DNA of 64,000 nt from an uncultured Candidatus Saccharibacteria bacterium (GCA_964370865.1 CAYJKF010000002.1:84719-148718); one strand, 5' to 3'. Positions 2,927 through 48,363 are shown, numbered from the stretch's first letter. Program-made: numbers and translations. The notes: generated by a model from the letters alone, not told the origin.

Positions 2927-2996
2927 TTGTATAATTTTATCAATTTTTCGTTAATTTAATACGTGACTATAATTTTCTGATATCGTTTAATAGATT

Positions 2997-3998: not shown

Positions 3999-4032
3999 TA
4001 CAATTTATTCCTTTTGTTATACTTTTATTTGT

Positions 4033-5181: not shown

Positions 5182-5196
5182 AATTATCACAATCAT

Positions 5197-5868
5197 ATGA
5201 AAACAGAATTTCCCGAATTGGAGAGCAAAAGTGAGTCCTCCTTGTTTTTTGCTTTTTCAAAGCGAGCTATGGATGTCCTTGGCTCCATCGTATTCATGAT
5301 TATTTTTTCCCCCTTTTATATTATTTTTGGGATACTAATTTGGTTTCAAGATTTTCATTCTCCCATTTATGTTCAAAAACGAGTTGGACAATTTAACAAG
5401 ATATTCACGATTCATAAATTCAGATCAATGGTTATTAATGCTGACCTGGTAATGATGCAGGACGCGAATTTATATAACCAATTAAGAAGTGAGAATAATA
5501 AGATACAAGATGACCCGAGAATTACTAAGCTGGGTAAATTTATTAGAAAATATTCTATAGATGAATTTCCTCAAATGTTTGATGTCTTATTAGGTAGTAT
5601 GAGTTTAGTAGGTCCTAGGCCTCTTCGGCCTGATGAGGCACAGTTATATAGAGATCAAAGTGAAGAACATTCAAGACAGCTGGATAAAGTCTTTGAGATG
5701 AAACCAGGAATTACTGGCTTGTGGCAGGTAAGTGGAAGATCTAATATTTCATTTAAGGAACGAATGATTTTAGAAGAGAAATATTCTAGAGCAAGATCGA
5801 TTATGCTTGATATTACAATCTTAGCGAAAACTCCCCTTGCTGCGATTCAGGGTGAGGGAGCGTATTAA
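5197..5868 (+). CDS. Polyprenyl-phosphate sugar phosphotransferase (bacterial sugar transferase, WbaP/WcaJ C-terminal domain type)
   Basis: One N-terminal TM helix, then SLVGPRPLRPDE...KPGITGLWQVSGRS, the hallmark of the Bac_transf family. Confidence 0.8.
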   Translation: MKTEFPELESKSESSLFFAFSKRAMDVLGSIVFMIIFSPFYIIFGILIWFQDFHSPIYVQKRVGQFNKIFTIHKFRSMVINADLVMMQDANLYNQLRSENNKIQDDPRITKLGKFIRKYSIDEFPQMFDVLLGSMSLVGPRPLRPDEAQLYRDQSEEHSRQLDKVFEMKPGITGLWQVSGRSNISFKERMILEEKYSRARSIMLDITILAKTPLAAIQGEGAY

Positions 5869-5935
5869 GTAACCTATATTTATCATATTCGTATGGTAAA
5901 CTAATTGTTTAGTTGTTAGATTGTTTTGGTAAATT

Positions 5936-8020
5936 ATGAAACGTTTAAATTTCTCAAATAAGAATTCAATTAGTAGTTCCTCACCTTCTTTTTCTCCAAG
6001 CGGAAGTGCCTCAAGAGAAAAATATAATTTTTCAAATAAATTCAGATTCCCTAAGATTAGAATAAATGTGAAATGGATTTTGATTACTCTTGGAATATTT
6101 CTCGGTTTAGTTTTAGTAATAGGATTAGCCGGTTATTTTCTAGTTGCTAAACCAGTATTAGCAATTGCAGATGACGCAAAAAAATTAAAAGATTCTACCT
6201 ATGCGATAAATGCAGGCTTAGAAAATCAAGATCTTGAAGAAATAAAAGGTGGCATTGATAACACTAAAAAAGAGCTCGAAAGATTTAAAGGAAATTTAGA
6301 AACTAATTCTAAGTTGTTAAGAAAATTACCAAGAGCAAATATTTATTACGAGGATGGGCAAAATTTAGTAGTAGTGGCCGAAGAAGCATTAAGCTTGGGT
6401 GAATTGACAATTAGTATTATTGAACCTTATGCCTCTGACTTGGGTTTTGCCTCGGGTGACCAAGAAGCAAGAAATATTCCGGCACAGGAGCGTGTTATTA
6501 AACTTATGCGATTAATGCCAGAATTCTCTCCAAAAGTTAATGAGATTTCACAAAGAATGGTGAAGATTAATGATGAATTAAATAAAATTGATGCCTCAAA
6601 TTATCCAACTAAATTACCATGGGTGGTCAAATATGCTGGAGTAGATCCTGAAATGAATTTACAGGAGCAGATATTAGATATTCAGGCTATTACCAAAGAA
6701 ATTGCTCAAAAGGCGCCTCAGTTTGAAGCATTCTTTAATGCAGTGCCAGAATTTATGGGTTTGAATGAGCCAAAAACTTACATGATAGTTATGGCCAATA
6801 ACTATGAATTACGAATGAGCGGTGGATTTAATACATATATAATTTTAGTTACATTTGCAGATGGAATTCCTGATATTACAAATTCCATCGATACATACTT
6901 TATTGACGAAGGCGCTAGAGCTGGCTCTTTTGGAAGACCAGTTAGGGCGGTTCCATACCATTTGAAGAATTACTTATACCTTTCTGGAAACACATTTAGA
7001 TGGTATGCAAGGGATGCAACCAGCAACAATGCTGATTTCCCGCTTGCCGCAGATGATTTAGTGAATCTTCACTGGAAAAACGCAGGTGGCTTAATACAAC
7101 AATTTGATGGAGTTATAAGCATAAATAATGATGTTGCGGTGGATATCTTAAGAGCAGTGGGGCCAGTTATGACTGATAAATATTCAATTAAGAGAGATGA
7201 TAATACGTATGTAACGGTACCAGTCACTGAATTCAATGCAGATAATGTTATTTACGAACTAGAGAATATTGCAGGTGGAAAATTAGCTGAAACTTTGGGA
7301 AGAAAGGAGATTATTAAATTTTTAGCGACTTCTATTTTGACGAAAATTTATACCTCTGAAGCAACAAATCTAGTTCATATAATGAGAGTTGGTCTTGATT
7401 CCTTAAGCAAAAAGGATGTAATGCTATATTCATATGATCCTGAAGTGCAAAAAGCATTTGAAGATTTAGGATATGGAGGGCGGATTGCTTCTGTACCAGA
7501 GGGCTCAGATTATCTTCATGTAAACAGAAGTAACTATGGTTCAGGAAAAGCTGATTGGACACAACCTGGATTTGTATATCAAACTGTAGATAAAAAAGTC
7601 GAAGTTGTTGATGGTAAAAAAATTAGTACAGTAAACGTCACGGTTAAGAATCCAAAGCGTCCGGAGTGGTTCAATATAGATCCATGCTGTTTCTATAATG
7701 CTTATATGAGGGTATATGTACCGATAGGATCAAAAATGATATCTGTAACAACATCCGATGGTCAAGATGCTAAAGGTGCAGAATTTGTAGATGATAAAGT
7801 TCAAAAAACTTATATTGAATCATTTACAAGGCAGCCAAAAGAAACTGATTTAACTATAACGTATGTTTACGAACTTCCAGATAGTGTTAACTTGGATGAT
7901 TACAATCTAGTCCTACAAAGACAGTCAGGTACTACGATCGATGAATATAAAGTTACTGCTAACGGAAAAACGGAAGATATACTTCTAAATTCTGACAAGG
8001 TGATACATATTAGTCGATAA
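5936..8020 (+). CDS. Membrane-anchored extracytoplasmic protein, DUF4012-like
   Basis: N-terminal Ser-rich region plus a single TM helix. Central NNYELRMSGGF motif resembles the conserved NNaExR-tGG motif of DUF4012 proteins, which accompany cell-wall glycopolymer clusters. 694 aa. Confidence 0.5.
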   Translation: MKRLNFSNKNSISSSSPSFSPSGSASREKYNFSNKFRFPKIRINVKWILITLGIFLGLVLVIGLAGYFLVAKPVLAIADDAKKLKDSTYAINAGLENQDLEEIKGGIDNTKKELERFKGNLETNSKLLRKLPRANIYYEDGQNLVVVAEEALSLGELTISIIEPYASDLGFASGDQEARNIPAQERVIKLMRLMPEFSPKVNEISQRMVKINDELNKIDASNYPTKLPWVVKYAGVDPEMNLQEQILDIQAITKEIAQKAPQFEAFFNAVPEFMGLNEPKTYMIVMANNYELRMSGGFNTYIILVTFADGIPDITNSIDTYFIDEGARAGSFGRPVRAVPYHLKNYLYLSGNTFRWYARDATSNNADFPLAADDLVNLHWKNAGGLIQQFDGVISINNDVAVDILRAVGPVMTDKYSIKRDDNTYVTVPVTEFNADNVIYELENIAGGKLAETLGRKEIIKFLATSILTKIYTSEATNLVHIMRVGLDSLSKKDVMLYSYDPEVQKAFEDLGYGGRIASVPEGSDYLHVNRSNYGSGKADWTQPGFVYQTVDKKVEVVDGKKISTVNVTVKNPKRPEWFNIDPCCFYNAYMRVYVPIGSKMISVTTSDGQDAKGAEFVDDKVQKTYIESFTRQPKETDLTITYVYELPDSVNLDDYNLVLQRQSGTTIDEYKVTANGKTEDILLNSDKVIHISR

Positions 8021-10081: not shown

Positions 10082-10792
10082 ATGCTTGAAAACGAAATCC
10101 AGAAAGAGATACTGTCGATTTGTAGTTTTATTCCTAATGGAGCTAAATACTCAGAGCTAAAACCACAAAGTATAAAAATCGAAAATGATTTGTTTAATTA
10201 CCATCTACAATATCTTGTAAAAAATTCTCTCCTGAAAAAGGAAAATGCTCTATATTTCTTAACAGAAAAAGGTAAATCGCTAGTTACAAATATTGACCAC
10301 GTAAGTAAAACACTTTCTGGAAATTATAAAGTTAGTGTATACGTATGTCCCGTTATCGATAACAAAATACTCTTATATAAAAGATTAAAGCAACCTCAAT
10401 ACGGATATACTGGTTTTATTTCTGGAAAAATTAAATATGGTGATACGATATTGGATACAGCAAAACGTGAATTTAAGGAGGAAACAGATTTAGAGGCAGA
10501 CTTCAAGATCATCGGAAGTATGAGACAGATTAGAAAAAATAGTGAAGGTGAAGTTATTGAGGACGGGATTTTCTATATTTGTTACACAGATAAGATATTT
10601 GGTAATTTAACCGAGAGTAGTAAAGAGGGTGAGTATTTTTGGACAAATGTTAATGAGGTGAGTGCATTGGAAAAAATATTTAAACCAAGTCTTGAAATAG
10701 GAGTTAAGGAAATTGAGAAACGTCTTAATGGAACTACTTCATGGGACAATCAATTCATATATGAGCTTCAGCCTGAACCAGAAGATTATTAA
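10082..10792 (+). CDS. Nudix hydrolase with an N-terminal winged-helix-like domain
   Basis: Nudix box GKIKYGDTILDTAKREFKEETDLE in the C-terminal half. N-terminal ~70 aa (YLVKNSLLKKENALYFLTEKGKSL) resembles a wHTH. Confidence 0.7.
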   Translation: MLENEIQKEILSICSFIPNGAKYSELKPQSIKIENDLFNYHLQYLVKNSLLKKENALYFLTEKGKSLVTNIDHVSKTLSGNYKVSVYVCPVIDNKILLYKRLKQPQYGYTGFISGKIKYGDTILDTAKREFKEETDLEADFKIIGSMRQIRKNSEGEVIEDGIFYICYTDKIFGNLTESSKEGEYFWTNVNEVSALEKIFKPSLEIGVKEIEKRLNGTTSWDNQFIYELQPEPEDY

Positions 10793-14349: not shown

Positions 14350-15552
14350 ATGGATTTAGCTTCTACATATTTAATAAAGGGCGGTTGGTCTGCGCATGGG
14401 GATGTTGAGGTGTCTGGCGATACAAATTCCGCCATTGCAAATACATGCTTAGCATTACTTACTGGCGAAAAGAAAATCATTATAAATGCTCCTCGAACAA
14501 ATATTTTTTTAGCGTTTTTGAAGAACTTAGAATTATTAGGTGTTGAAATTAAATGGATTTCAATTTCTCAGATTAGTGTTGATGTTGATTGGAATGTATT
14601 TGATCCTGATTTTGTTCAATATTTGCCTGATTTAGTTCCCACTTTTTCAGAGATATTTATAAACCTAGTATTAGCAAAAAAATATTCAGTAAAAGTTCCG
14701 CTAAAATTTAGGACCCATTTACCAAGATATAAACGATTGGGTTGTATTGTCGAATTCTCTGATGATAATTATTTCTTAATTCAGGCACCAATACATAACA
14801 ACGTAGCTTTGCCCAAATATCATATACATTCTTTTCAAAAAGATTTCTACGCTTTATTGAATTATTCTCTATTAAAATATATTTATCCTAAAATACATAT
14901 TGATTTTGATAATAAGCCACACCCACTTAGGATTTTTAGCGACCAAGAATATATGAAGCAAGATAAATATAGCGTATCCGCAAATGTTTCAGAGGTGAAT
15001 TTTTATGCGATGCTTGCAGTATTAACTGATGGCGAATTAAATATTAAAGGGGTAGATTTAGAGCTTTCATTAGGTTTTCTAATGGATTTAGATGAGATAG
15101 GGGCGACTTATGAAGTAAAATCGAAAGTATTGAAAATCTGGCAAGACTTAAAGTTTTTAAAGCCAAAGTATAACTATATATCCTCAAATCCAGATGAATT
15201 AGGATATCTTTTACTATTTCATACTCTATACGGCGAGAAAAAAATTAGTATCACTTGTAGGGATTCTTTTGATATTAGAGATTTAATTAAAACGTTGAAT
15301 ATAATGGGTTGTTATATCAGTTATGAGCAACTACAGGATAAAATATTAGAATTAACAGTTAAGCCATCTGTTTTAGTCTCATTTAAATTGCCAATTCCTA
15401 ATGGTAGATGGGGAGGAGTCGTTTTAGCCGCAGCTATCGCTTACATTGGAAACAGCATAGTAACTGATATTGAGAGAATTTCTGACTACATTCCATTCTT
15501 AGAAGAAACACTTGAAAATCTTGATCTAAAATTAATTCCTAGAGCAAGTTAA
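14350..15552 (+). CDS. Divergent MurA/AroA (enolpyruvyl transferase, EPT) fold protein, probably non-catalytic
   Basis: The N-terminus (LIKGGWSAHGDVEVSGDTNSAIANTCLALLTGEKKIIINAPRTNIFLAFLKNLELLGVEIKW) aligns position-for-position with the MurA N-terminus (L.GeV.iSGaKNaaLpil.AaLLae.pv.i.NvP.l.Dv......L..LGa.v). Thr replaces MurA Lys22. No PGGC(T)IG Cys115 loop was found. Confidence 0.45.
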   Translation: MDLASTYLIKGGWSAHGDVEVSGDTNSAIANTCLALLTGEKKIIINAPRTNIFLAFLKNLELLGVEIKWISISQISVDVDWNVFDPDFVQYLPDLVPTFSEIFINLVLAKKYSVKVPLKFRTHLPRYKRLGCIVEFSDDNYFLIQAPIHNNVALPKYHIHSFQKDFYALLNYSLLKYIYPKIHIDFDNKPHPLRIFSDQEYMKQDKYSVSANVSEVNFYAMLAVLTDGELNIKGVDLELSLGFLMDLDEIGATYEVKSKVLKIWQDLKFLKPKYNYISSNPDELGYLLLFHTLYGEKKISITCRDSFDIRDLIKTLNIMGCYISYEQLQDKILELTVKPSVLVSFKLPIPNGRWGGVVLAAAIAYIGNSIVTDIERISDYIPFLEETLENLDLKLIPRAS

Positions 15553-22566: not shown

Positions 22567-22749
22567 ATGCCAAGTAATGCCACTAAAAAAGAACTTTTCG
22601 TGTTTTTTTTTCTTATTTTCTGTGGGTTAATTGCCATTGCGTATTACTTTTACAAAGCTACTTTTAGATTCGATCCATATTATAGATTTAAAAGTGAGGA
22701 ACAAGCAAAGCAATTGATAAAATCCCCAAAAATTCTAATTGACCGTTGA
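22567..22749 (+). CDS. Small hypothetical membrane protein (60 aa, one TM helix)
   Basis: Short ORF directly after ftsZ with a hydrophobic N-terminus. No homology signal. Confidence 0.3.
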   Translation: MPSNATKKELFVFFFLIFCGLIAIAYYFYKATFRFDPYYRFKSEEQAKQLIKSPKILIDR

Positions 22750-23997
22750 TCCTTTTCCAATAATATTACGATTTATATTGATTGCATAAGTTAGAGGCGA
22801 AATACAAGCTAAACATAAAAACAAATATTGCCAATTATTAAATGACCATATAAAAACTACAGCAAAAATCATTCCCAGCAACACCGCCAGTTCAATAATA
22901 TAAGTTCTGTAGATAACGAAATCTGTCTCATGTTTTCCAAGTTTTGCATGCATATACATAGAACTTAAAAATGGTATCGAAAAGAAACTATTGTTTAATC
23001 GATCTAAAAAATCAGCGGAATAAATAATCGAAGGGGTTGAAGCAAAAGCGCGAATGACATATAAAGTTGTGTTCAATGAAACTCCAATCTTGTGTAATAA
23101 GTAGGGGCCGCTACTATCCACGGCTTTCCCGATTTTAAACGATAGAACTGTAGATAATGCCATTGAAAAAGAAGTAATAATTCCAATTACAGTAATATCA
23201 CTTGATATAAAAAAGATTAGAAGCGGAGACATAATAGCAAAAAATACATTTTCAACACCCATTGCGGCAAAAGCAATAGAATCGTTTACTAGACTGTTAT
23301 TTTTAATGTATTTAAAAAATATCTGCTTGGCATTATGTTTACCATGCTTATGTTCTTCGTTGCTAAATACCAGAGGAAGACCCGCAAATAGCAATATCAC
23401 CAGTCCTACAAGAAATAATGATTCAAAACCTGAAAAAGAAATTAGCATGGCTCCTATAAGAGGTCCTGTCATTGATGCAATCCTAGATAAGAGGAGTCTG
23501 AATCCTATATTCTTCCCGTATCTTCCTTCTGTGGAGGCTGATTTTCGTATGAAATAGGTATGATAGGGAATCCAATATAAAATGCTATTTACACTTAGCA
23601 AAGTTATAGAAATCGGCAGAAATAGAAAGAGATTTATTGGTGCAAGATAAAGGGAGAATAGCCCAACTCCTAATAGAATATTGCCCACAACAATCGAACC
23701 TTTAAAGTTTAATTTGCCAAATATTAGATTCACCATACTAGGCAGTAAGATTAATGCGACAAGAGATTTTAATCCATAAAAAAGAAATATATTGATTACT
23801 CCTCTAGAAATTTCATTTGATATTCCTAATGGGTTTAGGTGAATACTTTGATAAATAAAAATCGGTATATAGATTCCCATTACAGCTTCGGCAAAAGATC
23901 TTAGTGTATTAGTGATATATAAAGCTTTGGATTCAGTAAAATAGTGTTCTCCAAGTATATAGGCTGAATAGTTTTTTGCGGCAGGATTATGTTGCAT
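22735..23997 (-). CDS. Integral membrane transporter, probably major facilitator superfamily
   Basis: 420 aa with about 12 TM helices. No catalytic motifs. Confidence 0.5.
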   Translation of the reverse strand: MQHNPAAKNYSAYILGEHYFTESKALYITNTLRSFAEAVMGIYIPIFIYQSIHLNPLGISNEISRGVINIFLFYGLKSLVALILLPSMVNLIFGKLNFKGSIVVGNILLGVGLFSLYLAPINLFLFLPISITLLSVNSILYWIPYHTYFIRKSASTEGRYGKNIGFRLLLSRIASMTGPLIGAMLISFSGFESLFLVGLVILLFAGLPLVFSNEEHKHGKHNAKQIFFKYIKNNSLVNDSIAFAAMGVENVFFAIMSPLLIFFISSDITVIGIITSFSMALSTVLSFKIGKAVDSSGPYLLHKIGVSLNTTLYVIRAFASTPSIIYSADFLDRLNNSFFSIPFLSSMYMHAKLGKHETDFVIYRTYIIELAVLLGMIFAVVFIWSFNNWQYLFLCLACISPLTYAININRNIIGKGSTVN

Positions 23998-35574: not shown

Positions 35575-36018
35575 ATGAAATCTATAACAAATAGAATATA
35601 TAAAGCATTTTCTTATAATGAACTGTTGCTAAGTGTCACGATTATAGCAATCCTCTCTGCTATGGCAGGACCTTATTTATTGAATTCCTTAACGTCAAAT
35701 CAAGTGGAACAGACATCTCGAATCATAATTTCGCTACTTAGATCATCTCAACAGTATTCAATTGATAGGATTGAAAATGCCAACTGGGGAGTTTGTATGG
35801 TTGATGGTGAGATTATGCAGTATAAAAACTCATGTACTTCAGAAAATATACAGAAAACTTATATACCAGAGCCAAATATATCAATTAACGGATTAAACAA
35901 TGTTTTCTTCGAAAGTTATACGGGTGAACTGTCTTCTACTATAAGTATTTCCATAACAGATGGAATCGAGAGTCGATTAATTGAAATTAATGAGATCGGA
36001 GGATATGAAATCAATTAA
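35575..36018 (+). CDS. Pseudopilin / minor pilin-like protein (degenerate prepilin N-terminus)
   Basis: N-terminus KAFSYNELLLSVTIIAILSAMA resembles a class III signal peptide and has Glu+5, but has Ala instead of Gly at the cleavage site. Confidence 0.5.
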   Translation: MKSITNRIYKAFSYNELLLSVTIIAILSAMAGPYLLNSLTSNQVEQTSRIIISLLRSSQQYSIDRIENANWGVCMVDGEIMQYKNSCTSENIQKTYIPEPNISINGLNNVFFESYTGELSSTISISITDGIESRLIEINEIGGYEIN

Positions 36019-37783
36019 GAAAGCTTTTTCACTTGTAGAGTTGTTAGTAGCTCTTGGCGTTTTCACAATTGTGATATCTAGCGGTGCTGGATTTATCACT
36101 TCCAGTTACAAACTTACGACTATGAGTGAACAAAACACTAAAGCCAGACAATTGGTAAATGAAGGGTTAGAGGTTACTAAATATTTGAAAAGGAAAAGTT
36201 GGGACAGTTTAGTTAACGGACAGTGGGGAATTAATTATAATAATCAGTCACTAGACTGGGAATACATTCCTAACCTAGACATTACAGATAGTAAATATTC
36301 GCGAGTAGTTACTATCTCAGATATTTATCGGGAAGAAGATGGAACAATCGTTACAAATAGCCCAACAAGCGCATTGGATTTATTTTCGAAAAAAGTTAGT
36401 GTAACTGTTACTTGGGATAATGCAAATAATAACGATCGTACAATAACTCAATCATTTCTAATTACGAATTGGGAAAGGGAAGTTCCTGGAGGTGGTTCTG
36501 GCATGTTGGTTTATGCAGATTATTCTGGTTCAGATGATATTATACGGTACAGATTTTTATATGAGGATGGTACTTGGTCGGCCCAGTATACTATTCCAGA
36601 CGCAGGAGTGCCCGCTAATCGAGATACTCGGCGTATTGAGCTCTATGCATCAGATACAAGGGATGAATATGTTCTTATGTCAAAACATACCGAGGATGGT
36701 CAATTTATATTTGCTCACGTTTGGGATGGTTCTCGTTGGATAGAACCAATACAGTTGGTTGGGTATGGTGATAACACTAATCCGAATACAAGAAATTTTA
36801 GTGGTACTTACTTAGAGGATGGAAGATTTTTAGCGGTCTTTGATGATTTTACATTCACACCAAAATATAGAATTTGGAATGGTACAAGTTGGGGTTCAGA
36901 AGGATCTATTGGGAACTTGGGTTTTCTAAGCTACCCAGTCTGGATGGAAGTGGAGGCTAGACCAGGTAGTAATAGGGCTATTTTTGTTGTAAGAGATTGG
37001 TTACAGAAAACAACAACTTATGTTTGGGATGGTTCAAGCTGGGGAAGCCGTGTTACTCATGGTAGTTCATCAACTGGTTCATCAATTGAAAACATTTCAC
37101 TCCAGTGGAATCGATTTTCTGGTTCAAGATTAGCGTTAATGTTTAATGAAGCCAACGATAATAATCCAAATATTAAAATATGGAATGACTCAACAAACAG
37201 CTGGAGTAGTAATGTGGAAAATGTAGCCTTACCAGGTTATGCACGTATTTTTGAAATTAGTGATAATCCACAGAGGGATCAGTTTGTAGGGTGTGCGAAA
37301 GATTCTGTTCGCGGAATTAGTTGCCTTACAACTACGTATACTCCATCTTGGACAAATGCAACACAAATTGCTACCCGTACTCACGGGAATGCTGAGAGAA
37401 GCTTTAGTGTAGGATACGAAAATAGTGGAGATGACGCTCTCGTAGTTTACAGTAACGGACCAACCGATGCGGATTTGAGAGAACCGAAATTTAGAACCTT
37501 TAATGCGAGTAGTTTGAGTTGGTCAGGTGAGCAAAAAATAGATGAACTAGGGCCGACTTCTTCATATGCTCTTACTACGACTAGGGTTTTGCCATCACAT
37601 AATTCCAATGACGTTATGGTAGTAATGGGGGATCAATCTAAAAGGATTCATACCATAGTTTGGGATGGTGATAATAATCAATTTTATGATTCAGTCGGGC
37701 TTCAACTTACTAAACAAGGTGATTTTGGGTCATATAATGAAGATTTTTGGTATGCATTTTCTTGGAGGGAATATGAAGAATAA
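36005..37783 (+). CDS. Large pilin-like protein (~592 aa) with a C-terminal predicted 7-bladed beta-propeller. Candidate pilus-tip adhesin.
   Basis: Prepilin-like N-terminus KKAFSLVELLVALGVFTIV. Seven spaced repeats of the form (aromatic)x(V/I)W(D/N)GxxW: YEDGTWS, VWDGSRW, IWNGTSWG, VWDGSSWG, IWNDSTNSW, SLSWSG, VWDGDNN. Each repeat is preceded by a short hydrophobic strand. Confidence 0.6.
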   Translation: MKSIKKAFSLVELLVALGVFTIVISSGAGFITSSYKLTTMSEQNTKARQLVNEGLEVTKYLKRKSWDSLVNGQWGINYNNQSLDWEYIPNLDITDSKYSRVVTISDIYREEDGTIVTNSPTSALDLFSKKVSVTVTWDNANNNDRTITQSFLITNWEREVPGGGSGMLVYADYSGSDDIIRYRFLYEDGTWSAQYTIPDAGVPANRDTRRIELYASDTRDEYVLMSKHTEDGQFIFAHVWDGSRWIEPIQLVGYGDNTNPNTRNFSGTYLEDGRFLAVFDDFTFTPKYRIWNGTSWGSEGSIGNLGFLSYPVWMEVEARPGSNRAIFVVRDWLQKTTTYVWDGSSWGSRVTHGSSSTGSSIENISLQWNRFSGSRLALMFNEANDNNPNIKIWNDSTNSWSSNVENVALPGYARIFEISDNPQRDQFVGCAKDSVRGISCLTTTYTPSWTNATQIATRTHGNAERSFSVGYENSGDDALVVYSNGPTDADLREPKFRTFNASSLSWSGEQKIDELGPTSSYALTTTRVLPSHNSNDVMVVMGDQSKRIHTIVWDGDNNQFYDSVGLQLTKQGDFGSYNEDFWYAFSWREYEE

Positions 37784-38279: not shown

Positions 38280-38656
38280 ATAATACAAATTTAAATGGCT
38301 ATATTGCCTTAGTTTCTGTATTGATTCTTTCAGCAGTGATTATGTCAATTTTAGTAACAGTTTCAATTACCTCAGCTTATAGAATTAACGGAATTCTAAA
38401 TGAACAAGGCGTAAATAATATTAAATTAGTAGCGGAGTCTTGCGCAGATGATGTTCTGTTAAAATTAAATCACGATAATCTACTTCCGAGTACCGTGACA
38501 GTGGATGGTGTTACGTGCAACGTCGTTCAAAATAGTCAGTTAGGTACTTTATGGGATTTTGATATCAGTGTAAGTTTATCTCAAATGGTCCACACAATAA
38601 ATATTGTTGCTGACAGAACTGATAAAATATACATTATAAGTTGGAATAATAAATAA
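38276..38656 (+). CDS. Pseudopilin-like small membrane protein (PilX-like?)
   Basis: N-terminus NGYIALVSVLILSAVIMSIL is a hydrophobic pilin-like helix. Start overlaps the previous stop by 4 nt. Confidence 0.45.
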   Translation: MNNTNLNGYIALVSVLILSAVIMSILVTVSITSAYRINGILNEQGVNNIKLVAESCADDVLLKLNHDNLLPSTVTVDGVTCNVVQNSQLGTLWDFDISVSLSQMVHTINIVADRTDKIYIISWNNK

Positions 38657-40116
38657 TGAACCACAATTTGCTATTAATAACAAAAGATAAGATTTATTTG
38701 TATTCACATACTGATAATAAAATTTTAAATATTCAGGAACCGGTGATGTGGGTTGAGTCAAATTTAGAGCAAGTAATTGCTCAATTATTGGCTAAATTTA
38801 AATCTAAGAATTGGGGTGTGCTTTTAAATAATGACTTGAATTACGTTATTTCTTTTACTATAGATAAACCTCAAAAACCTAACGAAGAAAAGAGTTTAAT
38901 TAGGCAGAAAGTTATTGAAAAGATACCAGAATATTCTGACAAACTAGTTTGGGACTATAAAATTTTGAGAGATAAAGGTTTTTCTACAGTTCAAATTGCG
39001 GCCTCAGAAAAGTCTCTTATCGAACATATTTACCGAGCTTTTGAGATTTCCAAGATTTCCAAGATGGCTCTTTCATTCATTGAGCCTATGTCTTATTTCC
39101 TTGCACAAGGGGTATCAAAACAAGATAAATATTACGTAATTTTGTATACGTCTCCACTTGAATCAATTATTGCTCTCGCAAATAACGGTTTCATTAGTAT
39201 GGTCACTACTTTAAATAATGAAGATTTAGAGTCACAACTTAATAAATTTTTCGAATTCATTAAGATAAAGATTCCAATGTCATTCCCAATTGAGATGTTA
39301 GTTTCTGATAATAATAATGTGCTTACTGAGCAACTTGTATCAGTACTAGAGAAATCCAATGCCAAAATTACAGCTTTAGATTTGACGCCATTTTTATTCA
39401 AGGATTATGCTGAAATCAAAAGCCGGAACGACGAAGCTAAACTAAATTTAAATAATGATAACAGTTTTGTTGCCGAGGTTGCTCAACAGAGAAATGAGTC
39501 ACCACAAGATTCTCAAAAACCATCAAAGCATAAGAAATGGATTTCCATAATTGCAATTGTAACGATGTTTTTAGTTATGGCTGGAGCATTAACTTATTAT
39601 TTTACAAAAGATGAGGAAACGGAAGAGAACGTTACTGACGTTAAATTAGTTTCGCCAACACCCACACCGGCATCAGAAGTTTTAAACGAAAGCGAAATTG
39701 ACGAAAAAGAGCAAGAGACAATTGATAGTAAGGTTGTCGAAAGGCCAAAAGCACTTGAGAACTTTAAAGGATATAGACTGGAGATTTTAAATGGGTCAGG
39801 AATTCCCGGGGAAGCAGATAAAATGAGAGATCTAGTTGTACCTTTACAATTTGATAGGGTTAATGTAGGTAATGCAGATAAATTTGATTATTTGGACACG
39901 ACAATTCAATTTAGATCTGAAGAAGTTAAACTTGGACAGGATTTATTGCAAGACTTACTGGACAATTATTCTGTAGTTGTTTCTGAGGAATATTTGCCTG
40001 CTTCATCGATTTATGATGTGCAAATTCTAATAGGATCGACGAGGAATCCACAGACATCATCAATAAAGGGGGATTCAGAAAGTCTTAATGGTGGAGTACA
40101 GGGAATCGAGCCATAG
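38656..40116 (+). CDS. Pilus assembly protein: PilM-like cytoplasmic N-domain, TM helix, and C-terminal LytR_C domain
   Basis: Central TM helix WISIIAIVTMFLVMAGALTYYF. C-terminus YRLEILNGSGIPGEADKMRDLVVPLQFDRVNVGNADKFDYLDTTIQF matches the LytR_C pattern (V.V.NGsg..G.A......L...Gf.v..vgna......t.I.y). The N-terminal 290 aa has weak PilM-like character. Confidence 0.45.
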   Translation: MNHNLLLITKDKIYLYSHTDNKILNIQEPVMWVESNLEQVIAQLLAKFKSKNWGVLLNNDLNYVISFTIDKPQKPNEEKSLIRQKVIEKIPEYSDKLVWDYKILRDKGFSTVQIAASEKSLIEHIYRAFEISKISKMALSFIEPMSYFLAQGVSKQDKYYVILYTSPLESIIALANNGFISMVTTLNNEDLESQLNKFFEFIKIKIPMSFPIEMLVSDNNNVLTEQLVSVLEKSNAKITALDLTPFLFKDYAEIKSRNDEAKLNLNNDNSFVAEVAQQRNESPQDSQKPSKHKKWISIIAIVTMFLVMAGALTYYFTKDEETEENVTDVKLVSPTPTPASEVLNESEIDEKEQETIDSKVVERPKALENFKGYRLEILNGSGIPGEADKMRDLVVPLQFDRVNVGNADKFDYLDTTIQFRSEEVKLGQDLLQDLLDNYSVVVSEEYLPASSIYDVQILIGSTRNPQTSSIKGDSESLNGGVQGIEP

Positions 40117-42181: not shown

Positions 42182-43369
42182 ATGGTTAGCAAATTTTTAA
42201 ATAAAGACGATTTAGCCAAATTAAAATCCGAAACACCAACTACTAAGAAAATTGTTTTTACCTATGGGACTTTTGATCTAATACACAGCGGTCATGCAGC
42301 ATATTTAGTTGAAGCGAAAAACTTAGGTGATGTGTTAATCGTTGGCGTTACGACTAATAAATCTCGTAGAGAAATGAGAGGAAAAGGATTTCCTCTAGTT
42401 GATCAAAAAAACCGCGCGGAGTTACTAACATATTTTGATTTTGTGGATGGAGTTATATACGTTGATGACCGAAATTTACTTCAACAACTAAAAATACTTA
42501 AACCTGATATTTTTTTTACACACTCTTTAGATTGGAAAAGCCATTTAAGAAAACCTGCAGAAGAAAAGTTTGTTGAGGGATATGGTGGACAGGTCTATAA
42601 ACGAAAACCACAGGGACCATTTGTTTCCTCTTCTATGATTGTAGAATTAGTTGCCGATTTAAAAATAAAAGAAGTTGTCGAATATTTCTTTGGAAAAATA
42701 AAGATTGACCTAACGGATGGTAATTGGAAAGTTGGAGCGTTCTCTGGATTAAAAACGAAAATTAGAACAGAATCATTAGTTTTTCCAGAGCACTTAATGT
42801 CACTTGGATTATTTGGGAGTAAATTCGGAAGAAAAATTATCCCTAAAAATAAATTAAGCATTATCGTTAAAAAATTGAAAAAAGATTCCAAGAAAGTCGT
42901 TCTGTCAGCAGGTTCTTGTGATTTACTTCACGTGGGACATGTTCGTTTCTTTTCCAAAGCCAAGGAAGAGGGCGATATTCTGATACTTGGTATACCAACG
43001 GATAAAATAATTAAAAAGCAAAAGGGTAGAGGACGTCCAATCATAAATGAAAATTCTAGAGCAGAACTTATGTCGTTTTTCCCTTTTATTGATTATATTT
43101 TTCTATTCGATGATGAAAGTATTTTGCAACCTATTATTGATTTACAGCCTGATGTTTTTTTTACGGTCAAAGAAGAATGGAATAATATCGAAAATTCATC
43201 TATATCTGATAATATTAAAAAGTGGGGAGGACGAATTGTTACCGCTCCTCCACAAGCAGATGGACTTTCTTCTAGTAAATTAATTAAACGAGCTGCGGGT
43301 ATTCGTGTAAGAGAACTTTTTAAAGAAGTCCTACATGAAGCCGAGAAACTTACTAGTCTTAAAGATTGA
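42182..43369 (+). CDS. Tandem cytidylyltransferase-domain protein: two HxGH nucleotidyltransferase modules, Pcyt2/TagD-like
   Basis: First module VFTYGTFDLIHSGHAAYLVEAK. Second module SAGSCDLLHVGHVRFFSKAKEEGDILILGI. Both carry the HxGH motif of the CTP-transferase family. 395 aa. Confidence 0.65.
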   Translation: MVSKFLNKDDLAKLKSETPTTKKIVFTYGTFDLIHSGHAAYLVEAKNLGDVLIVGVTTNKSRREMRGKGFPLVDQKNRAELLTYFDFVDGVIYVDDRNLLQQLKILKPDIFFTHSLDWKSHLRKPAEEKFVEGYGGQVYKRKPQGPFVSSSMIVELVADLKIKEVVEYFFGKIKIDLTDGNWKVGAFSGLKTKIRTESLVFPEHLMSLGLFGSKFGRKIIPKNKLSIIVKKLKKDSKKVVLSAGSCDLLHVGHVRFFSKAKEEGDILILGIPTDKIIKKQKGRGRPIINENSRAELMSFFPFIDYIFLFDDESILQPIIDLQPDVFFTVKEEWNNIENSSISDNIKKWGGRIVTAPPQADGLSSSKLIKRAAGIRVRELFKEVLHEAEKLTSLKD

Positions 43370-43851
43370 TGACTATGCATACTGATTATTCTAATTTTAA
43401 AGCACGACAAAATGGAGAGTACGAAAAAGCATGGCAGTCTACCGGTAAATGTGTGTTTTGTGACTTGAGAGATAAATATATTATTTATGAGAAAAATGGA
43501 GTGGTCCTTACAACAAATTTATTTCCATACATCGATGGGCATTTAATGGTAATTCCACGTCGTCATTCTGAAACTATTCAAGAGGTTACGGAGGAGGAAT
43601 GGGTTGAGTTCAAACATATTATCGAACTGGGCTCTGAGTTGCTAAAAAAAACTCTAAAAATAAAGGATGTCTGGGTTTTATATCGAATTGGAGAAGGCTA
43701 TAGGGCTGGAAAATCCGTCGTTCATAGTCATCTCCACTTGATTCCATATTCACTTGATTTAATTAAAATGGAGTATCAAGAATTAAATATTTCACCGCAG
43801 GAACTAGCAGAGAAATTACGAAAAAGTATCAAGAAAAATGAAACTCAATAA
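43366..43851 (+). CDS. HIT (histidine triad) family nucleotide hydrolase/transferase
   Basis: Histidine triad VVHSHLHLIPY near the C-terminus. N-terminal CVFCD. 161 aa. Confidence 0.75.
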   Translation: MMTMHTDYSNFKARQNGEYEKAWQSTGKCVFCDLRDKYIIYEKNGVVLTTNLFPYIDGHLMVIPRRHSETIQEVTEEEWVEFKHIIELGSELLKKTLKIKDVWVLYRIGEGYRAGKSVVHSHLHLIPYSLDLIKMEYQELNISPQELAEKLRKSIKKNETQ

Positions 43852-44362
43852 CCACCAGAAAAATGATTTTATAAAGAAGGCCGCATTTATTGCCGACAAA
43901 TCATCATGTTTATATAAAGTTGGTTGTGTTGGTGTTATTGAAGATGTTGGACAGACTATTCCATCAAGCGCTCTAAAAGATTTATCATATAGAAAAAAGG
44001 ACGGTTTTATATATCTTAAAAGTTGGAATGAAACTTTACATGGCGAAATTTTTTGCCAAGAATGTGATGACAAAGGAAATAAAGTTTGTATCCGGCAAGT
44101 TGAAAATTTAAAAGGTAGAGATTTCCAGAAAGTATGTTCAATTCATGCTGAATCCAACTTAATAGCTAAATTCGCAAGATATGGAATTTCTACAGAAGGG
44201 ATGGTTTTGTTTATAACAAATACGCCGTGTTATGTATGCGCAAAAAATCTAATTCAAGCTGGGGTTTCTAAGGTTTATTATCTAGCTGAGCATACTGACA
44301 CAACAGGAATGGATATACTTAGGACAAACGGAATAATTTCAGAGAAAATTTCATTTAACTAG
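43838..44362 (+). CDS. dCMP (deoxycytidylate) deaminase, ComEB-like
   Basis: Zinc-binding deaminase motifs HAESNLIAKFA and PCYVCAKNLIQAG. dCMP-deaminase-type insertion carrying extra Cys/His (CQECDDKGNKVC). Confidence 0.75.
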   Translation: MKLNNHQKNDFIKKAAFIADKSSCLYKVGCVGVIEDVGQTIPSSALKDLSYRKKDGFIYLKSWNETLHGEIFCQECDDKGNKVCIRQVENLKGRDFQKVCSIHAESNLIAKFARYGISTEGMVLFITNTPCYVCAKNLIQAGVSKVYYLAEHTDTTGMDILRTNGIISEKISFN

Positions 44363-46114
44363 AGTTTGATACAAGCCTGTGGTTTTAAAGCCATTCTTTT
44401 TATAATATTCTCTCGTTCCAACTGAAGATATTACTGCAAGTTTTTGAAAATTATTTTCTTTTGAAATCTCTAAGGACTTTGCAATTAATGTCTTTCCCAA
44501 ACCTAAATGTTGGGTTTTAGCCTTTTCACCTATATTTAGGCTTTCTCCATAAATGTGAATTTCACGAATAATCGCGGCTCCATCCAATTCCTCGATAAAA
44601 TGTGGTGAATCCAGATTAGGCAAAGATAAACGTAAAAATCCTGCAATTTGATTTTCGTTTGTAACAAATTCCAAGAACTTTTCAGAAGAGACAGATGTTT
44701 CATATTCCAAAATTTTTAATTTAAGATCTCCTAATTCGACTTTTTTACCGCGAATTTCTCTATATCTGATTTCCTGTATATCAGCTTTTTGATTTTTGAT
44801 ATTTATTTCAACTGTTTGACGTAGATTAGTTTTTTTATTTCCAACTACAATATCTTGAGATCCAATATCCCTAATCATTCGAGTAATCCTGCAGTATGCT
44901 GGTGTTAATTTATAAGCTTCCTCTAGAACGTGAGTTAGTTCTTCATAAGTATATGGTTTCCATAAACCTTTTTTATAATATTGCATTAACTCTGCGCTAG
45001 CGATTAGTGAACATGGATAAATTTTTATTTCATCGGGCCTAAATTTAGGATCACTAAAGACTTTCTTGTAATCCTCAATATCTTTTTGTGGTGTTGAACC
45101 ATATAAGTTTGGCATCCAGTGCGCGTGAATTTTAAATCCTGCTTTCCTTAATATCGCGACTGCATTTGCAGTAACAGAAGAATCATGTCCTCTCTTATTA
45201 AGCATCAAGACTTTATCATTCAAGCTTTGAAAACCAATTTGTACCTTTGTAGCTCCAAGTTTTCGAATACGAATAACTTCGGTTTCTGTTATTTCATCTG
45301 GTCTTGTCTCTATAACAAGTCCAATACAGCGAGTTTCTGCTAATTCATTCTGTGAGTGAACCGTAAATAATTCGTCCCATGTTGCATGTTCGGTTTCAGA
45401 TTGTGGTTTTTTTGGAAGTATCGCCATCGAAACGATTTGATTATAAGTTTTATTAAACTGTGTTCCATCAATTTCTTCTAATAACTTATCTTCGAATGGA
45501 ATCTCCATTTTCGTTTCAACAGGAGTTGGCAACGTAAAAGTATCGAAATCATTCATAGCATCGAAGCATCTTTTAACAAACCATATCTGATAAGGTTCGG
45601 GGTATGAGGTCCAGGTTCCACCAAGAATAATTAATTCAATTTTATCTGTTGAATGGCCAAGTGCTTTATATGCAACTAGCCTGTTAAAAGTTTGTGCATA
45701 CGGGTCGAATTTATTTCTAGTCGCTCTTTGTGCTCCAGGTTCATCTGATAAATAGCTTTTTGGCATTCGAACATCATTTGGACAAAAAATACATTTTCCA
45801 GGACATGGAAATGGCTTGGTAAGTACGGTAACTGGAGTTACTCCTGAGATAGATCTTACTTCTTTGGATTTCAAATTTTGTCTCAAAGTTTTAAGTTCGG
45901 TAGGAGTAAGGGTTATTTCATCAGTCTTCAAAAATTCAATTAGTGATACTGTTAGATCGCTTTTTTTGAAAATTCCTTTATCTCCCTTTGGAAACTGCCT
46001 AAATGCTGTCTGAATGTCTTTATCATCAGCCTTTTCCATTTTAGCCAGCTTGTAGATTAGCGGTATTGTCTGATTTTTATTCTTATTTATGTCAAAATGA
46101 TAGCTATTATTCAT
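44351..46114 (-). CDS. elp3: Elp3-like tRNA wobble-uridine modification enzyme (radical SAM + GNAT acetyltransferase domains)
   Basis: RSISGVTPVTVLTKPFPCPGKCIFCPN reproduces the Elp3 radical-SAM signature (R.ISG...V.V..KP..CP....C.YCP). C-terminal GNAT motif GLGKTLIAKSLEISKENNFQKLAVISSVGTREYYKKNGF. 587 aa. The start may be the internal Met at 46039. Confidence 0.8.
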   Translation of the reverse strand: MNNSYHFDINKNKNQTIPLIYKLAKMEKADDKDIQTAFRQFPKGDKGIFKKSDLTVSLIEFLKTDEITLTPTELKTLRQNLKSKEVRSISGVTPVTVLTKPFPCPGKCIFCPNDVRMPKSYLSDEPGAQRATRNKFDPYAQTFNRLVAYKALGHSTDKIELIILGGTWTSYPEPYQIWFVKRCFDAMNDFDTFTLPTPVETKMEIPFEDKLLEEIDGTQFNKTYNQIVSMAILPKKPQSETEHATWDELFTVHSQNELAETRCIGLVIETRPDEITETEVIRIRKLGATKVQIGFQSLNDKVLMLNKRGHDSSVTANAVAILRKAGFKIHAHWMPNLYGSTPQKDIEDYKKVFSDPKFRPDEIKIYPCSLIASAELMQYYKKGLWKPYTYEELTHVLEEAYKLTPAYCRITRMIRDIGSQDIVVGNKKTNLRQTVEINIKNQKADIQEIRYREIRGKKVELGDLKLKILEYETSVSSEKFLEFVTNENQIAGFLRLSLPNLDSPHFIEELDGAAIIREIHIYGESLNIGEKAKTQHLGLGKTLIAKSLEISKENNFQKLAVISSVGTREYYKKNGFKTTGLYQTLVK

Positions 46115-46819
46115 ATGAATGCCGAAACGATAGACTCCATTATAAGGTTAAACAACAACTTCTACAAAAAGGTTGCTCAAAGTTTTTCGAATACAAGACA
46201 ACATCCTTGGGATGGATGGAAACGTGTTCTGACTTATATTGAGGAAAATCACGTACAAACTATACTAGATTTTGCATGCGGAAACGGTCGTTTTCTGGAT
46301 TACCTAATTTCTCAAAATATTGAACCTAAATATACTGGGGTGGATTCAAATGAGGACTTGCTAGGCATTGCAGAGAAACATCATCAAAGACACCGATTCT
46401 TTAATCGTGATTTGTTAAATGAAGGATTACCCGGTCGAGAGAAATATGACATGATTGTTTCTTTTGGATTTATGCATCATGTTCCAACGGAGGAAATTCG
46501 AGAGCAGGTTATTTCCAAACTTTTTGATTTACTTAATGAGAAGGGAATTTTAATTCTAACTTTCTGGAGTAATCCAAATCGAAGAGGAATAATTCCACTT
46601 GATAAATTAACAGGCGAAGCTCTTAGGTTAAATAGTGAAATGGGTGAGAATGATTTCTTTTTTGGATGGGAAGGAGATTATGAAACACCGAGGTTTTGTC
46701 ACTTATTCGATGAAGAAGAAGTGATAAAACTCTTAGATAAATATAAACAATTTGAATTATTTAAATCCGATGGACGTACCTCGCAAGATAACATATATGC
46801 TGTATTATTTAATAGATGA
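46097..46819 (+). CDS. trm9: Trm9-like SAM-dependent methyltransferase (tRNA carboxymethyluridine methyltransferase family)
   Basis: FYKKVAQSFSNTRQHPWDGW and ILDFACGNGRFL match yeast Trm9 (VHKVYNEIAPHFSQTRYKPWP and GIDVGCGNGKYL). VSFGFMHHVPTEEIREQVISKLFDLLNEKGILILTFWS matches Trm9 ISIAVVHHWSTRERRVEVIRHVLSKLRQGGQALIYCWA. The start could be the Met at 46115. Confidence 0.7.
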   Translation: MIAIIHMNAETIDSIIRLNNNFYKKVAQSFSNTRQHPWDGWKRVLTYIEENHVQTILDFACGNGRFLDYLISQNIEPKYTGVDSNEDLLGIAEKHHQRHRFFNRDLLNEGLPGREKYDMIVSFGFMHHVPTEEIREQVISKLFDLLNEKGILILTFWSNPNRRGIIPLDKLTGEALRLNSEMGENDFFFGWEGDYETPRFCHLFDEEEVIKLLDKYKQFELFKSDGRTSQDNIYAVLFNR

Positions 46820-48363
46820 GTGAATGGCCCGTATACTTTAAAGACAGACTAACTATTTCGAATTTAAATAGTGCTAACGCTATTGCATGCCTTTGGACTC
46901 CAAAAGAAACAATTGAAAAACTCACTATTCCAGAAGCATATTGCGTTCTAGGCCAGTTGTATACAAAAAAGGGAATCAACTATCTATTAAGAAATATTTT
47001 AGCCAATCCATTTATTAAAAATATTTACTTGGTTGGAAACGACTTAATGGAAAGCGGCGAAGCTCTAGTTAAGTTTTTTGAAAATGGAATCGATGAAAAT
47101 TATAAAATAATTGGTGATGACTCTGCAGTAATAGATAAGGAAATTTCAATAGAAAAAATAAATATCTTGAGAGAAAAAGTTTCATTGGTGGATTTACGTG
47201 GAGCTGATAAATTAACTTCACTAAAAACTGCGATAAAACCCAACGAAGACATTTCATTATGGTCTGAGCCCGAGATGTTCGAAGAACCACCAGCTCCAGA
47301 TATTTCCACATTTCCATCAGAAGTAGATTTAATGAGAATTCGTCGTCCGCTAATATCCGAAGCCTATTTATCAGTACTTAAACACGTGATGCAGTTTGGT
47401 TTGGAGTCGGAGCCAGTTATGAATTATGTTTCAGATACATCCAAATCAATGAAGGAATTATTAAATCTTTCAGTAATTATTACTGATGAGGAGGTGGACT
47501 CCCCAAATGTTCCTGGCTATATGCCATTTAGTGCAACTGACTTGCAAAATTACTACAATGGTTTTTTTAATCCAGATAAAATGACAGAGGATTATACCTA
47601 TGGTGAAAGACTCTTTAATTTCGCAAATGATGAAATTAATGAACTAAAGAAAATATACCCTCATCTCAATATCGATAGATTTCAAAAATATTTTCCAGAG
47701 GGAGGAATCGACCAAGTTGCAATCTCCATCATTCGTAAGCTACAAGGTTTTAAACATGATAAAGGAGCAATTGCCCTTCTTGGAAATCCCTTTACAGATG
47801 TTTTTCCACAACGACCTTCAAAAAAAATACCATGTCTGTTTTTGATCCAATGTCAGATATATCAGGATAAATTAAATATGACTGCCTACTTTAGAAGTAA
47901 CGATATGTACAATGCATGGCCATTGAATGCATTTGCTTTAAGAAAGCTACAGAAGGAGATTGCTGAAAAACTTGATTCAAAACTAGGTTCACTAATAACA
48001 ATTTCAAATATGGCACATATATATGAACATAATTATTCTGATGCCAAAAAAATAATAGATGAAAACTATAAAGGTAATTGTGAATGGGATCCAAGAGGAA
48101 ATATTATTGTTGAAGTTATTAATAAAGAAATCGTAGCCAAATTAATTTCACCAGAAGGAACCGTAGAATTGCGAGAATGGAAAATTGATGGGACGTTACC
48201 TCATGCAGCCAGAGAGTTATCATTTCTAATTGATAAAGATTTAGCAGTTTCAACTTTTGGTAATGCTTTATATTTGGGTAGACAATTTGAAAGAGCCGAG
48301 ACCGCAATAAAACTGAAATTAGAATTTAAACAGGATAACCCACTTGATTTCGAGAAAGTCTAA
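46816..48363 (+). CDS. Thymidylate synthase (ThyA) family protein with a ~180-aa N-terminal extension of unknown fold
   Basis: The C-terminal ~330 aa align with ThyA. [27 protein letters not shown] matches DQI..v...L..dP.SRR.ivsAWNp. [36 protein letters not shown] matches [48 protein letters not shown] matches GGDTHLYSNH. The catalytic Cys is present. Confidence 0.6.
   Translation: [515 protein letters not shown]

Follow-up and report, generated by a model that had tools for sequence, protein, structure and literature searches.

Modification of the wobble uridine at C5 (xm5U34) is usually presented as a divide between the domains of life, with MnmE and MnmG serving bacteria and Elongator/Elp3 together with Trm9 serving archaea and eukaryotes, and Elp3 from bacteria has been regarded as rare and studied mainly as a surrogate for crystallisation. 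Here we analyse a head-to-head gene pair, encoding an Elp3 and a methyltransferase assigned by sequence comparison to the Trm9 family, at positions 44351–46819 of a 64,000-nucleotide stretch of DNA from an uncultured Candidatus Saccharibacteria bacterium (GCA_964370865.1, CAYJKF010000002.1:84719-148718). This whole stretch is referred to as the window, and all window positions are counted from its first letter. The two proteins probably act one after the other on tRNA, where Elp3 would make 5-carboxymethyluridine (cm5U34) from acetyl-CoA and S-adenosylmethionine (SAM), and the Trm9-family enzyme would methyl-esterify it to 5-methoxycarbonylmethyluridine (mcm5U34).

In eukaryotes, the same two catalytic families, Elongator and Trm9–Trm112, act in the same order to give mcm5U or its 2-thiolated form (mcm5s2U) at position 34. 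Eukaryotic Elp3 shares with the window protein the iron–sulfur (Fe–S) motif and the acetyl-CoA motif of the KAT domain, a long N-terminal extension and the lack of a zinc-binding cysteine triad, and residues R29, D72, H115, H116, W145, W168, R241 and N271 of Trm9 have counterparts in the window methyltransferase. The systems differ in that the eukaryotic Elp3 and Trm9 genes are not paired head to head, that the position of Tyr243 is occupied here by Cys and that six residues are inserted before the counterpart of N271. No Trm112 was detected nearby in a weak phmmer search, and the subunits Elp1, Elp2, Elp4, Elp5 and Elp6 are not expected here, although no search for them was made. In archaea, Elp3 operates without the other Elongator subunits, as would be the case here, alongside Trm9 (HVO_1032 in Haloferax volcanii) and Trm112. 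Formation of mcm5U by the Haloferax Trm9 homologue is documented both in vivo and in vitro, and HvoTrm9–Trm112 converts cm5U to mcm5U (PMC6144793). Clustering of the Elp3 and Trm9 genes in the archaeon S. solfataricus was noted in 2008 (PMC2584109). In contrast to the archaeal system, the host here is bacterial, as judged from the bacterial-type genes of the window, among them a dcw cluster with FtsZ, FtsA, FtsW and MurG; moreover, archaeal Trm9 depends on Trm112, and archaeal Elp3 keeps the zinc triad that is missing from the clade of the window protein. The bacterial pair would represent a variant of a two-step pathway already known from eukaryotes and Haloferax (PMC6144793).

Two bacterial systems serve as further comparisons. 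The Elp3 of Dehalococcoides mccartyi (DmcElp3) has the same Cx3Cx2C Fe–S motif and the same KAT motif as the window protein; it lacks the N-terminal extension and an insertion found here at residues 190–254 and keeps a CxCxxC zinc site, and the window protein is the opposite in all three respects. The Bacillus-type enzymes MnmL (YtqA) and MnmM (YtqB) likewise join a methyltransferase acting on the C5 side chain of U34 to a radical SAM protein akin to the Elp3 core, leading to 5-methylaminomethyl-2-thiouridine (mnm5s2U34), and ytqA and ytqB are themselves paired. The window proteins are distinct from these enzymes, as the Elp3 scores 59.1 bits with the MnmL model TIGR01212 (cutoff 180) but 457.6 bits with the ELP3 model and additionally carries a GNAT domain, and the methyltransferase does not match the MnmM model NF053511 (E <= 0.01).

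Family assignment of the two proteins

The Elp3 gene occupies positions 44351–46114 on the minus strand and encodes 587 residues, a length shared by the public gene call. The protein reaches 457.6 bits with the NCBIfam model TIGR01211 (ELP3; cutoff 350), the alignment covering model positions 43–517 of 522, and exceeds the Pfam cutoffs for Radical_SAM and Radical_SAM_C. The GNAT models Acetyltransf_10 and Acetyltransf_1 remain slightly under their cutoffs (22.2 versus 23.6 and 18.7 versus 20.7 bits, respectively). When the PDB was searched with phmmer, the best solved relative was D. mccartyi Elp3 (5L7J, 9.9e-96), followed by M. infernus Elp3 (MinElp3, about 1e-92) and by eukaryotic Elp3 structures at about 1e-71 to 1e-73. 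The GNAT/KAT domain (residues ~465–582; 44369–44722, minus strand) aligns over its full length, up to the C-terminus, with the KAT domains of DmcElp3 and MinElp3. Within the radical SAM domain, the Fe–S motif C104-x3-C108-x2-C111 (PCPGKCIFCP; 45782–45805, minus strand) has PCPGKCIYCP as its aligned counterpart in DmcElp3. The acetyl-CoA motif QHLGLG of the KAT domain (residues 535–540; 44495–44512, minus strand) is matched there by QHRGLG. The pattern CPGxCIFC is kept across the 118 clade members that we examined, and QHxGLG is likewise conserved in the clade. Judged from these profiles and alignments, the 587-residue protein is a full-length, genuine Elp3 and a predicted tRNA U34 C5-carboxymethyl (cm5U) synthase. 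The earlier note on this DNA had proposed an Elp3 with radical SAM and C-terminal GNAT domains next to a Trm9-like methyltransferase; both reading frames are present at the positions it gave and the domain architecture holds.

Three further features characterise this Elp3. Its lysine-rich N-terminal extension (residues 1–85; 45860–46114, minus strand) precedes the regions covered by solved structures, alignments beginning at residue 85 for DmcElp3 and at residue 70 for MinElp3. In archaeal and eukaryotic Elp3 this region binds tRNA, the N-terminus driving the binding, and it is absent from DmcElp3 (PMC6367351). An insertion of about 64 residues in the radical SAM domain (residues 190–254; 45353–45547, minus strand) is skipped by the PDB alignments, which therefore fall into two stretches, and is present in neither the Dmc, the Min nor the eukaryotic Elp3 structures; in most of the 118 homologues this clade-specific segment measures 57–94 residues. 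Finally, the linker QKADIQEIRYREI (residues 442–454; 44753–44791, minus strand) aligns opposite HQKCRCIRCREY of DmcElp3 and LRCRCIRCREV of MinElp3, so that DIQEIRYRE stands where the zinc triad (KCRCIRCRE) would be. The triad occurred in none of the 40 most frequent linker variants among the 118 clade members. Since eukaryotic Elp3 lacks the triad of the described zinc motif as well (PMC6367351), its absence does not exclude membership in the Elp3 family. The clade as sampled in loci L003–L082 is eukaryote-like in its N-terminal extension and in having no zinc site, unlike DmcElp3.

The methyltransferase gene lies at 46115–46819 on the plus strand and encodes a SAM-dependent enzyme of 234 residues, for which the AlphaFold2 model had a predicted local distance difference test score of 89.3. 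Pfam recognised it only as a generic class I methyltransferase (Methyltransf_12/23/25/31/11). In a single-sequence search of the PDB, Yarrowia Trm9 (5CM2_Z) ranked second with 2.3e-6, the alignment starting at NTRxxPW. We then used a profile of a 41-member family alignment (A2), which was assembled from homologues located beside Elp3 and from the protein database, and Yarrowia Trm9 became the top match (7.9e-18, 67.8 bits, profile positions 26–223), with the next matches at <=54 bits, 14 bits under Trm9. Among the PDB matches of this profile, Trm9 alone spans both the N- and the C-terminal substrate-binding elements. Comparison by hhalign with 15 fungal Trm9 sequences (A3), which served as the Trm9 reference in the profile comparisons, aligned 200 columns with a probability of 99.7% and an E-value of 4.9e-26. 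When the search was reversed, a hidden Markov model (HMM) of fungal Trm9 matched all 128 family open reading frames (ORFs) in the fetched loci, with a median of 43 and a maximum of 117 bits, and the window ORF with 63.3 bits; only four ORFs outside the family matched (E <= 0.01), each with <=23.7 bits. These comparisons place the window methyltransferase in the Trm9 family. The three sequence blocks on which the earlier note had based this assignment were recovered in the single-sequence, family-profile, hhalign and joint MAFFT alignments, except that SAM-binding motif I reads DFACGNG and not D.GCGNG.

The active-site residues support a more specific prediction. In yeast Trm9 (ScTrm9), R29, D72, H116, W145, W168, R241, Y243 and N271 are required for activity, and roles have been proposed for H115 and Y18 (Létoquart et al., PMC4678810). 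There, R29 is catalytic, H115 and H116 are involved in recognition of the carboxylate and of uracil O4, N271 is the proposed reader of uracil O2/N3, and W145, W168, R241 and N271 together account for base stacking and for carboxylate and uracil recognition (PMC4678810). We located the corresponding positions with the hhalign and MAFFT alignments and counted their conservation over 120 family members. Near-invariant counterparts were found for 9 of the 10 residues considered, that is, for 8 of the 9 tested by mutagenesis and for Y18. The catalytic arginine corresponds to R28 (120/120), which lies in the motif FSNTRQHPW (residues 24–32; 46184–46210, plus strand), and Y18 to Y17 (119/120). Asp72 is matched by D77 (117/120), H115 and H116 by the dyad H121–H122 after strand beta4 (118/120 each; 46475–46480, plus strand), W145 by W151 (119/120) and W168 by W185 (111/120, with Phe in 8 more). 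Towards the C-terminus, the R241-Y-Y243-H motif of Trm9 becomes R193-F-C195-H196 (46691–46702, plus strand), in which the arginine is conserved in 118 of the 120 members, and N271 corresponds to N226 (46790–46792, plus strand; 109 of the 112 ungapped members). The columns of R28, D77, H122, W151, W185, R193 and N226 are invariant in the joint bacterial–fungal alignment A4. In SAM-binding motif I, LDFACGNG (residues 51–58; 46265–46288, plus strand), the CGNG columns are invariant in alignments A1 and A4, and in A2 near-invariance holds for N57/G58. On this basis, the enzyme is predicted to be the carboxyl methyltransferase that converts cm5U34 to mcm5U34.

Conservation and arrangement of the gene pair

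To describe how often the two genes occur together, we analysed loci from both sides. On the Elp3 side, the 80 closest loci were taken from >533 matching stretches in GTDB species representatives. A methyltransferase family member was located within 6 kb upstream of Elp3 in 45 of these 80 loci, always divergently and mostly abutting. According to the record titles, the pair is present in all 18 Patescibacteria loci, in all 3 Acidobacteriota loci and in about 22 Chloroflexota loci, many of them Anaerolineae. On the methyltransferase side, 80 metagenome loci were identified via the motif LDxGCGNGRF, of which 51 could be assessed because their upstream sequence was 1 kb or longer. Here, Elp3 was found in 45 of the 51, in 43 cases divergent and within 600 bp. 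The pairing thus far exceeds chance, the divergent arrangement is conserved in both search directions in at least three bacterial phyla, and it recurs in hundreds of bacterial genomes, the counted cases being the two sets of 45 given above. Conserved divergent adjacency of this kind attests to functional linkage, not to activity.

All-against-all clustering of the ORFs in about 160 loci, of which 138 shared Elp3 and 126 the methyltransferase, revealed no third co-conserved gene family; the large additional clusters came from GC-rich genomes and consisted of Elp3 shadow ORFs. Family members without an adjoining Elp3 were also seen, at 5001–5927 in loci L165/L166 (P0020, with the NCBI name 'MAG: ... 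Eggerthellaceae bacterium') and at 5001–5714 in L163, one of them carrying a low-complexity insertion of roughly 60 residues.

A second type of bacterial pair was observed at 2209–5714 of locus L160, where it stands beside MurF and a bacterial TrpRS, and also in L148, L152, L153, L154 and L157. Its methyltransferase carries an RYYH motif and scores 79–117 bits with the fungal Trm9 HMM, which makes it much nearer to eukaryotic Trm9, and its Elp3 is more canonical as well (TIGR01211, 542–582 bits). In sequence terms, this RYYH subtype bridges the family of the window methyltransferase to eukaryotic Trm9.

The frequency of these genes bears on two statements of the earlier note, namely that bacterial Elp3 is rare and that a bacterial Elp3–Trm9 unit is undescribed. 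The former does not stand for uncultivated lineages, given that >533 stretches in GTDB representatives encode relatives of the Elp3 and that the methyltransferase family comprises about 2,000 clusters (2,009 at 90% identity and E <= 1e-10; 1,958 at 50% identity and E <= 1e-30). In the literature of 2019–2020, Elp3 was described as rare among bacteria or as limited to Dehalococcoides, whereas in 2026 it was attributed to 'numerous bacteria'. The latter holds insofar as a full-text search, in which subscription literature was partly beyond reach, returned no paper on a Trm9 that partners Elp3 in bacteria or on bacterial mcm5U, and nothing pertinent on wobble modification in CPR bacteria; it needs to be restricted in view of the archaeal gene cluster noted in 2008 (PMC2584109) and of the automatic JGI/IMG annotation, which already labels several family members TRM9, their NCBI name being class I SAM-dependent methyltransferase. 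The roughly 2,000 clusters that go under this name could now receive a specific predicted role.

At the junction of the two genes (46109–46120), the Elp3 start codon (46112–46114, minus strand) directly abuts that of the methyltransferase (46115–46117, plus strand), forming the palindrome ATTCAT|ATGAAT (CAT|ATG) with 0 bp between the start codons, and the public gene calls abut likewise. As no Shine-Dalgarno motif helped with start placement at the junction, the gene starts rest on homology. For the methyltransferase, whose ORF would extend over 46097–46819 if counted from its first ATG, position 1 of the family profile falls at 46115, in line with the public call of 234 residues. For Elp3, the start is placed at 46114, since residues 1–25 can be aligned with homologues of other phyla (~52% identity) whose ATG sits at the corresponding site. 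Of the two internal starts that had been considered to resolve an overlap of the ORFs, that at 46115 is therefore adopted for the methyltransferase, whereas the Elp3 Met at 46039 is not the start. Over 35 loci that allowed homology-based placement of both starts, the start-to-start gap had a median of 37 bp and was 0 or negative in 9. A scan for promoter and terminator consensus sites around the junction found them no more frequent than in shuffled sequence. The abutting start codons leave no room for the shared divergent promoter region that had been suggested; the promoter and 5' leader of each gene must instead lie inside its partner, an arrangement that would favour coupled expression of Elp3 and the methyltransferase.

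Proposed pathway and its alternatives

Taken together, this locus of a WWE3-like Patescibacteria genome can be read as a two-gene module for tRNA wobble-uridine modification of the kind known from archaea and eukaryotes. As expected from its family membership, Elp3 would bind tRNA through its lysine-rich N-terminal extension and a basic cleft, cleave SAM at its [4Fe-4S] cluster and, with acetyl-CoA bound in the KAT domain, place a carboxymethyl group onto C5 of U34 to yield cm5U34. Active-site conservation and gene linkage suggest that the Trm9-family enzyme would subsequently O-methylate the carboxylate of cm5U34 with SAM, giving mcm5U34, which may be 2-thiolated elsewhere to mcm5s2U. In this second step, the carboxylate would be held in place by R28, H121/H122 and R193, with W151 and W185 providing base stacking and N226 recognising the uracil. 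This agrees with the bacterial mcm5U34 pathway that the earlier note had predicted from the pair, now supported by profiles, active-site residues and pair conservation in both directions; the comparisons led neither to another radical SAM family devoid of a GNAT domain nor to an unrelated Methyltransf_11 protein in which the Trm9 blocks are lost.

A number of observations weigh against this pathway. According to a 2020 review, no direct evidence exists that bacteria contain xcm5U34 (PMC7663514). Pfam and NCBIfam name the methyltransferase only generically or sub-threshold, which speaks neither for nor against Trm9. In 35 of the 80 Elp3 loci no methyltransferase is nearby, and some methyltransferase genes do not adjoin Elp3. 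The start of a ThyA-like gene overlaps the stop of the methyltransferase gene, so that in the window genome the latter would also be co-transcribed with an unrelated function. Furthermore, Trm9 of eukaryotes and archaea needs Trm112, and no Trm112-like ORF turned up in the 64-kb window or in the loci when these were searched by phmmer with E. coli YcaR, a weak test based on one sequence. Pfam identified the YcaR query as Trm112p with 60.6 bits. One marginal match (locus L100, E 0.027) was isolated and overlapped the 5' end of the methyltransferase gene. Of the hydrophobic interface described for YlTrm9 (PMC4678810), the hhalign alignment indicates that F96 and Y111 are kept here, while T49 and K72 are polar. 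Lastly, the methyltransferase departs from canonical Trm9 in its own sequence. The family is 22–24% identical to fungal Trm9 in the joint MAFFT alignment, the insertion before N226 adds six residues to its distance from the conserved Asp compared with Trm9, and the position of Y243 is Cys in the window protein (C195) and in 91 of the 120 members, with Tyr in 4. In ScTrm9, the Ala mutant of Y243 is about 10-fold less active, with about 90% of the activity lost (PMC4678810).

These departures could also be accommodated if the pair acts on tRNA U34 but the methyltransferase, as a sister of Trm9, catalyses a step different from the canonical one, either on a thiolated or derivatised substrate or towards an end product other than mcm5U. 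The Cys at the Tyr243 position, the residues inserted before the uracil-reading Asn, the low identity to fungal Trm9 and the failure of the weak phmmer search to find Trm112 all fit such a divergence, as does the atypical partner Elp3 clade with its missing zinc triad and large radical SAM insertion; in Haloferax, too, the U34 products are not wholly identical to the eukaryotic ones (PMC6144793). We nevertheless regard this as unlikely, as the proposed carboxylate- and uracil-holding residues R28, H121/H122, R193 and N226 are all conserved and other bacteria show the same gene arrangement with the canonical RYYH subtype. Far less probable is a role outside tRNA, in which a dCMP-deaminase-like gene (43838–44362), Elp3, the methyltransferase and the ThyA-like fusion (46816–48363, plus strand) would act jointly on (deoxy)uridine nucleotides or DNA. 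The four adjacent genes all concern uracil or its C5, and the methyltransferase and ThyA-like genes overlap in ATGA, but the ThyA-like and deaminase neighbours occur in at most 9 of about 160 loci, compared with 138 for Elp3 and 126 for the methyltransferase, and dCMP deaminase and ThyA constitute an ordinary dTMP route unaided. In addition, acetyl-CoA hydrolysis by Elp3 is reported to be triggered by tRNA and not by the other nucleic acids tested (PMC6367351). We rejected this reading because the four-gene arrangement does not extend beyond close relatives, 9 at most.

The least probable explanation sees in the methyltransferase a generic enzyme of class I, either UbiE/BioC-like or an analogue of CmoM or MnmM, that neighbours Elp3 by chance in a compact genome or forms with it a variant of the MnmL(YtqA)/MnmM(YtqB) couple. 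Such a view could draw on the generic or sub-threshold Pfam and NCBIfam matches (BioC at 37.7 bits versus a cutoff of 185, UbiG, CmoB), on the many unrelated methyltransferases ranked alongside Trm9 in fold searches and on the weak resemblance of the radical SAM core to MnmL/YtqA. That resemblance stays far below the TIGR01212 cutoff, however, while the ELP3 model exceeds its own and a GNAT domain is present, and the methyltransferase shows no MnmM match. The Trm9-specific N- and C-terminal motifs and the catalytic residues are in place, and the adjacency is kept across phyla in both search directions. The two-way adjacency, the A2 profile, hhalign and the reverse search with the fungal Trm9 HMM largely refute a generic enzyme or chance neighbour.

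With sequential formation of cm5U34 and mcm5U34 as the preferred reading, the recurrence of the pairing predicts a tRNA modification that has not yet been shown in bacteria: Patescibacteria, Chloroflexota and Acidobacteriota carrying the head-to-head pair should contain mcm5U-type nucleosides, which is testable. A broader proposal, which we put forward only tentatively, is that a self-sufficient, Trm112-independent Trm9 variant (with Cys for Tyr) and a zinc-less, insertion-bearing Elp3 form a mobile module that replaces MnmE/MnmG in Patescibacteria and others, and that mcm5U-type chemistry is regular in much of the bacterial domain. No MnmE, MnmG or MnmA was found within the 64-kb window. If this proposal were true, mcm5U-type wobble chemistry would no longer be a hallmark of archaea and eukaryotes. 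The methyltransferase family itself already offers a naturally occurring panel of Trm9 enzymes for which Trm112 may be dispensable, and the Elp3 clade, given its eukaryote-like traits, could be used as a less complex model of the human enzyme, which is relevant to disease.

Genomic surroundings of the pair

The window belongs to a housekeeping part of the chromosome and is low in GC (about 34%), and its closest genomes are Patescibacteria metagenome-assembled genomes labelled WWE3 or 'Patescibacteria group'. Besides the dcw cluster (RsmH, PBP, FtsW, MurG, FtsA and FtsZ), it encodes GlyRS, IleRS, PilB/PilC, GatCAB, PyrG, DnaE, ClpB and PurF. An Rfam search of the window returned only five tRNAs, none of which has U34.

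Downstream of the methyltransferase, the ThyA-like gene encodes a three-part fusion of 515 residues, comprising an MtrA-like N-terminal domain (residues 2–141), a methanogen-type thymidylate synthase core (TIGR03283, 132 bits, under the cutoff of 174.55) and a C-terminal PterinBD-DUF4346 part. On the opposite side, the dCMP-deaminase-like gene converges on Elp3. The fusion and the deaminase-like gene together suggest an unusual dTMP route, possibly a folate-independent one.

Several other ORFs of the window are worth recording. A 395-residue protein (42182–43369, plus strand) contains two tandem cytidylyltransferase-like domains of the RfaE domain II type (TIGR02199, 201.9 bits), and the end of its gene is overlapped by a HIT-family gene (43366–43851, plus strand). 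Within the dcw cluster, a 400-residue ORF (14350–15552, plus strand) weakly matches the MurA/AroA enolpyruvyl transferases (~44 bits versus cutoffs of 297–393) and may be a very divergent MurA. No NCBIfam match was obtained for the ORFs of 420–694 residues at 1640–2926 (minus), 5936–8020 (plus), 22735–23997 (minus), 35981–37783 (plus) and 38656–40116 (plus), the last of which has a weak LytR_C Pfam match alone according to the public record. A 236-residue protein (10082–10792, plus strand) weakly resembles, over its N-terminal 67 residues, the archaeal Sso10a chromatin-protein family (31 bits versus a cutoff of 60).

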